Shown one piece after another: positions 789-4,370 of a stretch of DNA of 4,370 bases. Where the stretch lies: the IMG/VR virus record IMGVR_UViG_2671181064_000008; one strand, written 5' to 3'. Positions within the stretch are counted from its first letter, which is position 1, and each line of letters opens with the position of its first letter. The notes beneath the pieces are model-generated. The model was not told the DNA's origin and made no database searches. It worked only from the letters and a program-made list of their open reading frames with translations. The stretch is from a virus. Taxonomy: Duplodnaviria; Heunggongvirae; Uroviricota; Caudoviricetes. A program made the translations under genes and the position numbers.

Positions 789-1230
789 ATGAAAAATATT
801 GCGACAGGCGGCGTTCTGGAACGCATCCGCCGACTGACCCCGCCACATGTAACCGCCCCATTCAGAACGGTAGCGGAGTGGCGCGAGTGGCAACTTGCTG
901 AAGGCCAGAAACGTAGCGAGGAGATCAACCGCCTGAATCGCCAGTTGCGGGTGGAAAAAATTCTGAATCGCTCAGGCATCCAGCCGTTGCACCGTAAATG
1001 CTCGTTTGCGAATTACCAGGTGCAGAACGACGGCCAGCGATACGCGTTAAGCCAGGCGAAATCCATCGCCGATGAACTGATGACCGGGTGTACAAATTTT
1101 GCGTTCAGCGGAAAACCTGGTACCGGGAAGAATCACTTAGCGGCAGCTATCGGGAATCGCCTGCTGAAAGACGGTCAGACAGTGATTGTGGTTACCGTGG
1201 CTGATGTTATGAGCGCCCTGCACGCCAGCT
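789..1230 (+). CDS. DnaC-like helicase loader (AAA+ ATPase; phage P-equivalent), N-terminal about 147 codons only; 3' part absent at the N run
   Basis: Translation MKNIATGG...NRSGIQPLHRKCSFANY...FSGKPGTGKNHLAAAIGNRLL...VTVADVMSALHAS aligns with E. coli DnaC (NRSGIRPLHQNCSFENY, FSGKPGTGKNHLAAAI Walker A, ITVADIMSAMKDT). ATG at 789 follows the upstream stop (780-782) with a G-rich stretch 9 nt upstream. No Walker B or sensor region in any frame after the N run. Confidence 0.8.
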
Positions 1231-1271: not shown

Positions 1272-1287
1272 AGTTTCAGGAGGATTT

Positions 1288-1710
1288 ATGGCGAAACCTT
1301 TTACTCCCGAACAGCGGGAAGAACTGAAGACGCGAATTGTGGAACTCGTGCATCAGGACGGTCGGGTCACGATTCGGCAGTTGTCAGATGAAACAGGTAT
1401 CAGTCGTGCGTCTGTCGGTCGCTTATGCATAGAACTGGTCGCAAGTGGTGATGTATATAATTCTGGCTACGGCTTATTCCCGTCTGAACAGGCTCGCAAG
1501 GACTGGCAAAGCGCCCGCAAAAAACTCTCGAGAGTAAAGGTGAGGAAACCGGTTGTTGTTGATCCGGACCTTATCTGGTCATTACCTGACGGAGAAATAC
1601 GCCGCTACGACAGGCGCCTGAATATAATCTGTCGCGAGTGCCGGAAGAGCGAAGCTATGCAGCGTGTACTGGCTTTCTATCAGGGTAATTTTCAGGAGGC
1701 GATACTGTGA
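1288..1710 (+). CDS. ren: Ren-like protein (homolog of phage lambda Ren, Rex-exclusion resistance); HTH-like N-terminus, 140 aa
   Basis: AGGAGG at 1278-1283, 4 nt before ATG 1288. C-terminal ...ICRECRKSEAMQRVLAFYQG resembles lambda Ren ...FKECRQSAAMKRVLAVYGV as I recall it. The N-terminal region resembles a helix-turn-helix. Its position directly after the P-equivalent gene matches the lambda O-P-ren order. Confidence 0.55.
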   Translation: MAKPFTPEQREELKTRIVELVHQDGRVTIRQLSDETGISRASVGRLCIELVASGDVYNSGYGLFPSEQARKDWQSARKKLSRVKVRKPVVVDPDLIWSLPDGEIRRYDRRLNIICRECRKSEAMQRVLAFYQGNFQEAIL

Positions 1711-2124
1711 ATGAAATTAGCTATCAGGCTTCAATTACCGCTGGCATTCGCATCAAAGGAGAGGAGCATGGAAATAAAACCAGAAGATGAGTTAAGCAAT
1801 ATCGTTTTATTTCCGGTAAAAGAGGATGACCCTCGTAATCAGGTTAATTTTCTTTATGAGCCATCGGAAAGACCATATTGCCATCACGCCTCTGTACGGG
1901 TTGACGAAAAAGAGCGTCAGGTCCGCTGTAAAATCTGCGGTGCGGTTGTGGAGCCGTTTGACTGGATGCTCTCTGTGGCAAAAAGAGAAACCAGACTGGC
2001 AGATGATGTAAGGCTATTGCGCCAGGAGGAACAGGAAAGGCGGAGAAATATAGAAAAGCTGATACAGATTGAGCGTAACGCGAAAGCGCGGATACGCAGG
2101 GCGACAAAATCCAGAACTGAATAA
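1711..2124 (+). CDS. Hypothetical small protein with a Cys/His cluster (C-H-H ... C-x2-C, zinc-ribbon-like) and a basic coiled-coil C-terminus; alternative start at 1768
   Basis: ATG 1711 overlaps the ren-like stop (TGAATG) with AGGAGG 11 nt upstream. In-frame ATG 1768 has a stronger RBS (GGAGAGGAG, about 5-nt spacer) and would give 118 aa. Motif YCHHASV...RCKICG, then an Arg/Glu-rich tail. No recognisable family. Confidence 0.5.
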   Translation: MKLAIRLQLPLAFASKERSMEIKPEDELSNIVLFPVKEDDPRNQVNFLYEPSERPYCHHASVRVDEKERQVRCKICGAVVEPFDWMLSVAKRETRLADDVRLLRQEEQERRRNIEKLIQIERNAKARIRRATKSRTE

Positions 2125-2271
2125 TTAAATTTAGCACTGTTAAAAATTTAATCCTTAACCGGAGGGATTTCTGCACCCTCAAATCATCAGGAGACCACCC
2201 GAAAGGGCGGGGAGCAGTCACACATCTGTTTCCGATAGCCCCGTTCTAATGCTACACTCTTTGATATTTTT

Positions 2272-2958
2272 ATGACCCCAATAAACATATTTATGACAGT
2301 TGCTGATTTCAAACGGCCCAAATTGGAGCTCCCAAACGGGGCAAACAAACTACTACTGCACTCTTGCTGTGCTCCATGTTCCGGTGAGGTGATGGAGGCG
2401 CTTCAGGCCTCGGGAATCGACTACACCATCTTTTTCTACAACCCGAACATTCATCCTCAGAAAGAGTATTTAATTCGTAAGGATGAGAATATTCGCTTTG
2501 CTGAACAACACGGCGTGCCGTTTATTGATGCTGATTACGACACAGACAACTGGTTTGAACGAGCCAAAGGAATGGAATGGGAGCCCGAACGAGGGATCCG
2601 TTGCACCATGTGTTTTGACATGCGTTTTGAGCGGACAGCGCTGTACGCCGCTGAAAATGGTTTCAGTGTGATCAGCAGTTCACTGGGCATTTCACGCTGG
2701 AAAAATATGCAGCAGGTTAACGACTGTGGGCGGCGAGCCGTCGCGCATTATCCGGGCATGGTGTACTGGGATTATAACTGGCGCAAGCAGGGCGGCTCGT
2801 CCCGTATGATTGAAATCAGCAAGCGCGAAAAATTCTATCAGCAGGAATATTGTGGCTGTGTGTATTCTCTGCGCGATACCAATCTACACCGCAAATCTCA
2901 GGGACGCCCTCTTATCAAAATTGGTCAACTCCACTACGGTAAAGAAGAGAAGGAGTGA
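2272..2958 (+). CDS. queH: Epoxyqueuosine reductase QueH-like protein (DUF208 family, Fe-S enzyme of queuosine tRNA modification)
   Basis: Translation contains [39 protein letters not shown], the conserved Cys motifs and overall pattern I recall for QueH/DUF208. Start is uncertain (ATG 2272 or 2293), neither with a clear Shine-Dalgarno. Confidence 0.75.
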
Positions 2959-3117
2959 TTTTATGGGGCACCTTTCTGATTGATTTCATATTGGCGAGGT
3001 AAGTAGAATGACTGCGGGTGCTTGAGGCTATCTGCTTCAGGCATGAACACCAAAAGGCAGATAGAGAAAAGCCCCAGTTAACATTACGCGTCCGGCAAGA
3101 CGCTTAACATTAATCTG

Positions 3118-3434
3118 NNNNNNNNNNNNNNNNNNNNNNNNNNNNNNNNNNNNNNNNNNNNNNNNNNNNNNNNNNNNNNNNNNNNNNNNNNNNNNNNNNN
3201 NNNNNNNNNNNNNNNNNNNNNNNNNNNNNNNNNNNNNNNNNNNNNNNNNNNNNNNNNNNNNNNNNNNNNNNNNNNNNNNNNNNNNNNNNNNNNNNNNNNN
3301 NNNNNNNNNNNNNNNNNNNNNNNNNNNNNNNNNNNNNNNNNNNNNNNNNNNNNNNNNNNNNNNNNNNNNNNNNNNNNNNNNNNNNNNNNNNNNNNNNNNN
3401 NNNNNNNNNNNNNNNNNNNNNNNNNNNNNNNNNN
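3118..3434. other. Run of 317 N (masked or gap); content unknown
   Basis: Read directly. Confidence 1.
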
Positions 3435-3457
3435 CATCCTCAACGCACCCGCACTTA

Positions 3458-3501
3458 ACCCGCCCATCGCTGTGATCTCTCAGCGTTTCGGCGGGTTTTT
3501 T
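3458..3501 (+). terminator. Compound rho-independent terminator (+ strand)
   Basis: Outer stem acccgcc (3458-3464) pairs with ggcgggt (3490-3496); inner stem cgctg (3468-3472) / cagcg (3481-3485); followed by a T run (3496-3501). T run lies 3' on the + strand only. Confidence 0.5.
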
Positions 3502-3521
3502 GTTGTTTATTTCCGGTGAAT

Positions 3522-3549
3522 TTGATTCGCGCACCTTCGCAGATAGAAT
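3522..3549 (+). promoter_or_regulatory. Candidate sigma70 promoter for the downstream small-ORF pair
   Basis: TTGATT (3522-3527), 16-bp spacer, TAGAAT (3544-3549); about 80 nt upstream of ATG 3631. Sequence-only prediction. Confidence 0.35.
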
Positions 3550-3630
3550 CGACTCACTTAAGTAGCGCGCAGGGAGAAGAGGGATGGACCCCGAACAGGG
3601 GAGAGCTATTTATCTGGAAGGATTCTGAAG

Positions 3631-3918
3631 ATGAAAATCGAAGAATTGCGTGAAATTTTTAGTGAAAATGGCCTCTATGCTGTGCGCGTTGAGAATGGAG
3701 CGATTGTCAGCCATTGCCGCATTAGATGTTTGCAATCTCAACAAAGGAAGAGCGGTGCTGTGTTATTTTATTTTTGTAATGGACTTCTGACGGACGGTTT
3801 TATTTTGCGTGAGGACGAATTTGTCACATCATTACGGGTTTTGAAAGAGATTGGTTTTAAGGCTGGTTTTCTGCTTTTGCTGAAGAATAAACTCATCTAC
3901 AATCTTGAGCAGGATTGA
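3631..3918 (+). CDS. Hypothetical protein, 95 aa, AT-rich, no recognised family
   Basis: ATG 3631 with GGAAGG 9 nt upstream; uninterrupted ORF; no competing ORF on either strand; downstream of the promoter-like element. Confidence 0.4.
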   Translation: MKIEELREIFSENGLYAVRVENGAIVSHCRIRCLQSQQRKSGAVLFYFCNGLLTDGFILREDEFVTSLRVLKEIGFKAGFLLLLKNKLIYNLEQD

Positions 3919-3956
3919 ACTCCTGCTGTGTAACACCGTGCCACCGGAGAAAGCCG

Positions 3957-4310
3957 ATGGCACATATACAACTGGTCAAACAAACCTCTTCCGGATTACT
4001 TCTCCCGGCGACGCCGGAGAGTTGCGATTTTCTGCATCAAATCAAAATAGGTGAGTGGATACACGCAGACTTTAAGCGTGTGTGTAACTACGCATTCCAC
4101 AAGCGTTTTTTCAAACTCCTGCAACTGGGTTTCGATTACTGGACTCCGGTCGGTGGGGCGATCACGCCTCGCGAACGAAAACTGGTGTCCGGTTTCGTTG
4201 ATTACCTGTGTGAATCAGTAGGCCGGGAACATACGCCAGCTCTGAGCGAAGCCGCAGAGCAATTGAGGTGTACTGGCAATAGCGGACACTACCATTTGTT
4301 CTTTTTTTAA
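3957..4310 (+). CDS. Hypothetical prophage protein, 117 aa as written; may be truncated by a frameshift in a T7 tract at its 3' end
   Basis: ATG 3957 with GGAG 7 nt upstream (the TTG at 3915 in the ORF track lacks an RBS). Ends TAA 4308-4310 immediately after T7 (4301-4307). One extra T would keep the frame open to the window end. Confidence 0.45.
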   Translation: MAHIQLVKQTSSGLLLPATPESCDFLHQIKIGEWIHADFKRVCNYAFHKRFFKLLQLGFDYWTPVGGAITPRERKLVSGFVDYLCESVGREHTPALSEAAEQLRCTGNSGHYHLFFF

Positions 4311-4370
4311 GCAGCCATCTGATGATATTTTTCCCTGAAGGCTGCCGGGGAGATATTCCCCAGACGAGAG

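Follow-up and report, generated by a model that had tools for sequence, protein, structure and literature searches.

A queH gene on lambdoid prophages and plasmids of QueG-bearing enterobacteria and its possible role in cobalamin-independent queuosine synthesis

Why would a temperate phage carry a gene for the last step of queuosine (Q) synthesis into a host that already possesses an enzyme for that step? The question is raised by a 4,370-nucleotide stretch of Caudoviricetes DNA (IMG/VR record IMGVR_UViG_2671181064_000008), of which the whole length is called the window below and to which coordinates refer unless another record is named. It holds an open reading frame (ORF) for an epoxyqueuosine reductase of the QueH type. 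As an anticodon modification, queuosine is widespread and has been tied to biofilm formation and virulence (PMC10570037), and in Escherichia coli its last step hinges on an imported vitamin. The best overall explanation, and one that we consider probable, is that the gene supplies a working QueH on a mobile cassette, by which the dependence of this step on cobalamin (vitamin B12) is bypassed.

The ORF was first called from 2272 to 2958 on the plus strand (228 amino acids), and the first-pass annotation assigned it to the DUF208/QueH family on account of its cysteine motifs. The ORF exists, the motifs (CCAPC, CTMC and CGC) are real, and the family assignment is borne out by a full-length match to Pfam PF02677 (QueH, formerly DUF208; model positions 1-174 of 175, E=1.9e-65, 220.6 bits at a gathering score of 23.5 bits), as well as by a match of residues 27-203 to Thermotoga maritima QueH (7lc5, E=5e-22). 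An AlphaFold2 model with 26 homologues as input (mean predicted local distance difference test score, pLDDT, 80.5; predicted template-modelling score, pTM, 0.81) had five T. maritima QueH entries as its best five fold matches in the PDB (E ~1e-10, target template-modelling (TM) scores 0.78-0.80), followed by PP-loop enzymes of the TtuA type, which are tRNA thiolases (E ~1e-5). According to this model the phage protein is predicted to have the QueH fold, with an adenine-nucleotide alpha-hydrolase-like core. The NCBI Prokaryotic Genome Annotation Pipeline (PGAP) names the same coding sequence in E. coli FDAARGOS_944 'epoxyqueuosine reductase QueH'; a scan with NCBIfam gave no match to a QueH model, which is uninformative rather than negative, so this name must stem from another rule. 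By all features tested, the product of 2293-2958 is almost certainly a member of the QueH family.

The strand and the end of the ORF stand as first called, whereas its start at 2272 does not. All nine aligned copies (prophage, plasmid and Erwinia chromosome) have the ATG at 2293 without variation, PGAP chooses it as the start, and the equivalent residue is where chromosomal homologues begin. In the prophage of strain A10, as in the plasmid copies from Klebsiella and Salmonella, ATT stands in place of the ATG at 2272, and this lack of conservation rules out 2272 as the queH start. Between the window and Escherichia phage HannyBb, three of seven residues differ in the codons of 2272-2292 and only five of 221 in the remaining protein. 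The conservation thus places the start of queH at 2293, with a predicted protein of 221 amino acids (coding sequence 2293..2958 with its stop codon, plus strand; evidence from Pfam, PDB, model, PGAP and substitution ratios), and the seven in-frame codons at 2272..2292 (plus strand) are probably a 5' untranslated leader, as the ATG that opens them is not conserved.

The only solved QueH, that of T. maritima (DUF208, PF02677, COG1636; 7lc5, 7lc7 and 9deu), is of the same family and fold as the phage protein (about 31% identity over approximately 177-180 residues, target TM score 0.79), and the two have in common six cysteines as well as the motifs NPNI..EY, RC..C, ER and YCGC. The cysteines of the phage protein are C25, C26, C29, C104, C107, C187 and C189 in the 221-residue numbering, and C25, C26, C104, C107, C187 and C189 line up with the six of 7lc5. 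These six metal-ligand positions are invariant in 14 copies from Enterobacterales chromosomes, prophages and plasmids, and in the 26 homologues. According to work by Li and coworkers from 2021, the six QueH cysteines reportedly hold a [4Fe-4S] cluster and an adjacent iron; a structure of the C9S mutant of T. maritima QueH is also present in the PDB. The phage protein has about 18 extra residues at the N-terminus and about 20 at the C-terminus, and its gene lies on a prophage, whereas that of T. maritima is chromosomal. Closer relatives are the chromosomal QueH proteins of Enterobacterales (Erwinia, Providencia/Proteus, Photorhabdus, Gibbsiella, Ewingella and Pantoea), which have the same length and the same invariant residues.

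That the gene belongs to a prophage, as had been supposed, is confirmed from several sides. The segments 1272-3117 and 3435-4263 are 99.8-99.9% identical to E. coli FDAARGOS_944, where queH lies inside a lambdoid prophage of approximately 43 kb between ybhA and pgl (reference locus L001). The same slot, with a DUF977 gene directly ahead and with hokD and the nin genes behind, is occupied by queH in mosaically different prophages, for example in ST131 (sequence type 131) strain MB1159 and strain A10, which differ in repressors, antiterminators and late genes, and also in the isolated phage HannyBb, where it is annotated as 'hypothetical protein'. In IMG/VR, 189 viral contigs carry queH. A tblastn search of a phage genome collection yielded HannyBb as the sole convincing isolated phage with queH; the other matches (short unannotated 'Bacteriophage sp.' faecal contigs and dubious records of 280-380 kb) were not used as evidence. 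Of the 74 matching phage records, 73 (933W, VT2-Sakai and others) contain the hok/sok flank only, without queH.

The combination with QueG is general in E. coli. A queH coding sequence was found in 995 of 5426 complete genomes at a threshold of at least 90% nucleotide identity, nearly always on the chromosome, and all 40 of 40 records among the matches listed were intact and annotated 'epoxyqueuosine reductase QueH'. The queG gene of K-12 was matched in all 5426 genomes (at least 95% identity and at least 80% gene coverage), and therefore each queH carrier also has queG, in agreement with the expectation that QueG is the host enzyme. Carriers include ST131, O157:H7, avian pathogenic E. coli (APEC) O1 and 042 isolates.

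The prophage gene is under strong purifying selection: among four prophage and phage alleles the ratio of nonsynonymous to synonymous substitution (dN/dS) was 0.025-0.054 at dS values of 0.15-0.45. Its origin is suggested by the chromosomal homologues of Erwinia, Providencia, Photorhabdus, Gibbsiella, Ewingella and Pantoea, to which the phage protein has 79-86% amino-acid identity. In these six genera the gene has ordinary neighbours (purL-queH-glrK-glrR-glnB in Erwinia, and tmcA beside it in Providencia), in contrast to its position in the early operon of a phage of a QueG-bearing host. A neighbour-joining tree groups all mobile copies together, with the chromosomal queH of Erwinia next to their clade. 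The simplest history would be that a housekeeping queH was captured from an Enterobacterales chromosome.

Mobility of the gene extends beyond phages. In a tblastn search of a plasmid collection, about 99 Klebsiella plasmids were found to have the same queH clade, at 90-93% amino-acid identity, and plasmids of Salmonella, Enterobacter and E. coli carry it as well; many of these are conjugative IncF plasmids. On K. pneumoniae plasmid pKp2177_2 (L093 1-11119), queH lies near a type II set of the cyclic oligonucleotide-based antiphage signalling system (CBASS; patatin, CD-NTase, E1/E2 and JAB), a NACHT protein and a dGTPase, and two other Klebsiella IncF plasmids (L092 and L095) have TIR-domain proteins nearby. 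One queH plasmid encodes a TIR protein together with an EAL phosphodiesterase, and insertion sequence (IS) elements are found throughout the queH plasmids. In a K. variicola plasmid (L096 8001-16663) and a Salmonella plasmid (L094 8001-12504) queH stands just upstream of fecIRABCDE, the operon for ferric citrate, or of what is left of it, and this adjacency to a gene for an iron enzyme may be coincidental. Across the plasmids viewed the neighbours vary, and a constant functional partner of queH was not found.

What travels with the gene is a short 5' flank (2222..2292, plus strand), as recognized by megablast and alignment. In most E. coli genomes the megablast match starts at query base 73, corresponding to 2222, and the prophage, Klebsiella and Salmonella plasmid copies share approximately 75-110 nucleotides of 5' flank, further upstream of which the sequences are unrelated. 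Within this flank lies an extended -10-like box, TGCTACACT (2250..2258, plus strand), of the form TGn + TAnnnT, which is unique in the window and is positioned 43 nucleotides upstream of the ATG at 2293. Three of four prophage and phage copies (window, HannyBb and ST131) have the exact box at -43, as do three of four plasmid copies. One mismatch distinguishes the version of the A10 prophage, TGCTACACA, and a Klebsiella plasmid with an otherwise diverged flank has TGCTAAAAT at -44. A -10-like hexamer is present upstream of queH in five of the six chromosomal Enterobacterales genes: Erwinia has the identical box at -40, and a TAnnnT hexamer lies at -33 to -38 in Providencia, Photorhabdus, Pantoea and Gibbsiella. 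From this conservation we infer that queH probably brings its own extended -10 promoter and could be expressed from a repressed prophage. Control by a riboswitch was ruled out, as the E-value scan of the whole window with Rfam gave sok alone and neither a preQ1 nor a cobalamin riboswitch upstream of queH.

At the other end of the gene the alleles differ. A scan of 1600-3110 gave no intrinsic terminator-like site, and in the window the stop codon of queH is followed at once by the hok/sok sequence. In the alignment, other alleles were read to have differing G+C-rich inverted repeats just past the stop, such as GAAGCCCACAT/ATGTGGGCTTC on one Klebsiella plasmid, which would point to a terminator hairpin. 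The hok/sok upstream region (2959-3015) takes the place of this repeat segment in the window allele, whose last codons encode KEEKE where KEGQE is found in others, which indicates a recombination junction at the very 3' end of queH. The idea of a moron slot in the first-pass annotation therefore holds in part: the gene is present or absent between related phages at a module boundary and has a conserved promoter-like box, but a terminator is lacking in the window allele.

The mechanism that we propose starts from capture of queH, with its short 5' flank, from an Enterobacterales chromosome. The resulting one-gene cargo cassette would move among E. coli lambdoid prophages and Klebsiella and Salmonella IncF plasmids, and its own extended -10 promoter would allow expression both in the lysogen and in lytic growth. 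The encoded enzyme, predicted to be an iron-sulfur protein that acts independently of cobalamin, would convert epoxyqueuosine to queuosine at position 34 (oQ34 to Q34) in tRNA-Asp, -Asn, -His and -Tyr, and would free this step from the cobalamin-requiring host QueG. E. coli is incapable of de novo cobalamin synthesis. In E. coli cells deprived of B12 the tRNA stays in the oQ form, while a carrier of a queH prophage would still finish Q. That the phage allele is enzymatically active in E. coli is what its sequence leads us to expect.

QueG of E. coli catalyzes the same conversion of oQ34 to Q34 in tRNA and is cobalamin-dependent (PMC4646009), and QueH is a cobamide-independent alternative to it (PMC6461909); the two proteins are non-homologous, and QueG is chromosomal and universal in E. 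coli. Bacteria grown on glucose and salts in the absence of B12 contain oQ instead of Q, according to two papers that cite Frey 1988 (PMC4646009, PMC6850298). Because QueG needs cobalamin and QueH does not, the cassette would make completion of Q independent of corrinoids. The earlier suggestion that a phage-borne QueH could be redundant understates this difference between the enzymes. Pairs of non-homologous enzymes that catalyze one reaction with different cofactor needs have precedents in MetH/MetE, NrdJ/NrdAB and the QueG and QueH of Staphylococcus aureus (PMC6461909, PMC13443448). In S. aureus the two proteins coexist and are expressed differently, which the authors credit to cofactor availability (PMC13443448). 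The E. coli pair differs from these in that the cobalamin-independent member resides on a mobile element and occurs in a fifth of the strains.

Whether independence of B12 is also the reason for which the gene was selected is a question on which the arguments appear to us evenly balanced, and several observations weigh against the proposal as a whole. The predicted function is the ordinary function of QueH and its benefit is unproven. We know of no phenotype that separates oQ from Q. The gut, which is the main habitat of E. coli, contains corrinoids, and a shortage of B12 may be less common there than in minimal medium. An E. coli metE mutant supplied with cobamides grew no differently after deletion of queG (PMC11841063), and in view of this a selective benefit is unproven. 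With respect to expression, a scan for consensus sigma-70 promoters (-35/-10) found none around queH and did not call TGCTACACT, and part of the conservation of this box may stem from a recent common ancestor of the mobile copies. Finally, C29 of the phage enzyme stands opposite Asp13 of the T. maritima protein (CCAPC versus CCAPD; a structure of the D13N mutant is available as 9dco). This exchange of cysteine for aspartate is, on alignment, a difference from the sole solved QueH, and the position is cysteine in every Enterobacterales copy examined.

The benefit might instead be on the side of the phage, if QueH formed from the early-right operon after induction were to turn oQ-tRNA into Q-tRNA and thereby improve decoding of phage Asn, Asp, His and Tyr codons. 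Such tuning of the lytic cycle would fit the position of queH in the early rightward operon, where it shares its strand with the replication and nin genes and no terminator intervenes, and the retention of the gene by the isolated phage HannyBb; a 2026 preprint ties Q to phage infection in Shewanella. The codon usage does not point this way, and the retuning of translation at Asp, Asn, His and Tyr codons that the first-pass annotation had put forward found no support in it: early and late prophage genes have a NAU fraction of 0.54, host genes one of 0.53-0.64, and the share of NAY codons is likewise the same. The tRNAs of the prophage, Ile2(CAU), Arg, Thr and Gly, do not include a single member of the queuosine family, and no difference in decoding between oQ and Q is known. 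Moreover, the queH cassette with its promoter-like flank thrives on plasmids, which have no lytic cycle, so that we regard a lytic function as rather unlikely. The plasmid neighbourhoods call to mind another possibility, that mobile QueH serves in defence or counter-defence, either by changing the anticodon nucleoside that nucleases of the colicin E5 type recognize when they cut Q34 tRNAs, or by acting on 7-deazaguanine-based defence chemistry. Colicin E5 reportedly cleaves exactly the Q-containing tRNAs, some Klebsiella plasmids have queH among CBASS, NACHT, dGTPase and TIR genes, and the prophage gene abuts hok/sok. These neighbours are, however, not constant, since elsewhere the fec operon, an EAL phosphodiesterase or IS elements are found in their place, and PADLOC-DB 2.0 contains no family that matches QueH at E<=0.01. 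The high identity of the phage protein to housekeeping QueH, with no extra domain, favours an ordinary enzymatic role, and we consider a role as conflict gene improbable.

It could also be argued that queH is neutral, a redundant passenger that hitch-hikes in a recombination-prone lambdoid slot while QueG is always present; the universal occurrence of queG, the 82% of E. coli genomes that lack queH and the lack of any known phenotype of queG loss are all compatible with this. The dN/dS values of 0.03-0.05 at dS up to 0.45 are incompatible with relaxed constraint, however, the catalytic cysteines of QueH are all invariant, and the gene has been kept both on differing prophage backbones and, in other genera, on plasmids, which together make a neutral passenger improbable. 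Least probable by far is participation of QueH in a phage 7-deazaguanine pathway that guards phage DNA from restriction, a function related to the one that the first-pass annotation had mentioned as an option. Phages such as 9g, CAjan and relatives do carry queuosine-pathway genes for DNA modification, encoding DpdA with FolE, QueD, QueE and QueC (PMC6884629). These clusters comprise the early steps and a DNA transglycosylase, act on DNA and lack QueA, QueG and QueH, in contrast to the window prophage, which has the last, tRNA-specific step alone. Neither the required transglycosylase (DpdA or like tRNA-guanine transglycosylase, TGT) nor any preQ0 gene (FolE, QueD, QueE or QueC) is annotated in the prophage of approximately 43 kb, and they were not found in the 13.3 kb of HannyBb viewed around queH. 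As had been noted at the outset, the window has no other queuosine-pathway gene; a 7-deazaguanine gene is absent as well, and both statements hold for the whole FDAARGOS_944 prophage. By its gene content the DNA-modification explanation is largely refuted. To our knowledge epoxyqueuosine occurs in tRNA only. A survey from 2019 likewise reported that QueA, QueG and QueH were absent from the viruses analysed (PMC6884629).

The neighbours of queH in the window agree with the placement between replication or Ren-like genes and nin-type genes that was proposed initially, according to Pfam, PHROGs and PGAP alike. Upstream, the 5' part of a gene for a DnaC-like helicase loader of the ydaV type is found at 789..1230 (plus strand; NCBIfam PRK12377, E=1.1e-86; DnaC, E=2.5e-47), the FDAARGOS_944 counterpart of which is named ydaV, 'ATP-binding protein', by PGAP. 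It is followed by the last gene of the replication module, a DUF977/Ren-like gene of the ydaW type at 1288..1710 (plus strand; PF06163, E=1.1e-33; phrog_142 'Ren-like exclusion protein', E=2.7e-44), before which other prophages have DUF1627. A small ORF of 137 amino acids at 1711..2124 (plus strand; phrog_1621 of unknown function, E=5.1e-56) fills the space up to queH. It has a CxxC...CxxC signature and a zinc-ribbon match that is weak and below the Pfam cutoff, and in the PGAP version it is shorter (1768-2124). This filler is variable: other prophages carry another gene or none there, its place being taken by a methyltransferase fragment in HannyBb and by a reverse-strand ORF in A10.

Downstream of queH a hok/sok type I toxin-antitoxin locus, mostly masked by N, extends over 2980..3434 (plus strand), as identified by Rfam and by hokD of FDAARGOS_944, which is annotated at the matching place. 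The sok RNA (RF01794) was detected at 3016-3116 with 58.7 bits (E=1.1e-11) at a gathering score of 59, the N mask cutting it, and a scan gave a promoter-like site at 2980-3009. For sokW of phage 933W and for other Shiga toxin (Stx) phages, the match is confined to this hok/sok flank. The nin-type region is opened by a NinB/Orf-like DUF1367 gene at 3957..4310 (plus strand; PF07105, E=1.5e-46; phrog_319 NinB/Orf, E=6.1e-26). The similarity to FDAARGOS_944 ends at 4263, and the DUF1367 ORF ends early at 4310, with 131 amino acids against 199 in FDAARGOS_944. Both window ends (1-104 and 4264-4370) are without a match in FDAARGOS_944, the interior being 98.9-99.9% identical, and look like mosaic recombination junctions. 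Runs of N occupy 1231-1271 (41 bases), where they break the DnaC-like ydaV, and 3118-3434 (317 bases), where they hide hokD; the corresponding stretches of FDAARGOS_944 measure 303 and 277 nucleotides, so the masks do not keep length.

In FDAARGOS_944 the prophage runs from integrase, excisionase, Gam, RecE, Rha, repressor/Cro and YdaT through an O-like initiator, DnaC-like YdaV, DUF977, a small hypothetical protein, QueH, HokD and another hypothetical protein, and then to DUF1367, DUF1364, DUF1133, four tRNA genes, lysis, terminase, head, tail and baseplate genes. The tRNA cluster (L001 23398-23708) lies between the Q-like and lysis genes and comprises a CAU tRNA, Arg-UCU, Thr-UGU and Gly-UCC, the first of which is Ile (Ile2) according to PGAP and Met according to ARAGORN. 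At the far end of the prophage ipaHb is found, a type III secretion system (T3SS) effector gene that adjoins a DNA-invertase remnant (L100 8761-10587), and the flanking galE is a pseudogene. The 'E. coli' host FDAARGOS_944 looks Shigella-like or like an enteroinvasive E. coli (EIEC).

The identity of the protein as QueH is in itself already known, since it is the RefSeq name in about a thousand E. coli genomes. Phage resources have missed it, as PHROGs v4 lists the QueH family as phrog_3217 with 'unknown function' (E=1.7e-138). The profile of phrog_3217 begins at Met34 of QueH (2392-2958), which means that the underlying phage gene calls are truncated; these calls lack the metal-binding motif CCAPC, and this may explain why the family was not recognized. 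Carriage of queH by temperate phages and plasmids in QueG-bearing enterics was not found described: full-text searches of the literature yielded nothing on phage-borne or prophage-borne QueH, with a mention in the primary QueH papers being possible.

The biological meaning depends on activity of the mobile copies. If they are inactive, the prophage has simply captured an ordinary housekeeping gene. A more far-reaching view, which we hold to be unlikely at present, is that mobile queH acts as a lysogenic-conversion or plasmid-conversion gene with a real phenotype when corrinoids are scarce, by altering how NAU-rich genes are translated or how susceptible the Q-family tRNAs are to anticodon nucleases. 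Carriers would then gain in the gut or in conflicts with phages and colicins, oQ versus Q would get a biological meaning for the first time, and this would be the first temperate phage to rewire an anticodon modification of host tRNA by cofactor bypass. If the copies are active, a tRNA-modification enzyme would join the list of phage cargo genes, the annotation of PHROG 3217 would be corrected, and a natural genetic system for comparing oQ with Q would become available. About one-fifth of E. coli strains, and many Klebsiella plasmids too, would in that case hold a horizontally acquired bypass of the B12 dependence of queuosine synthesis.

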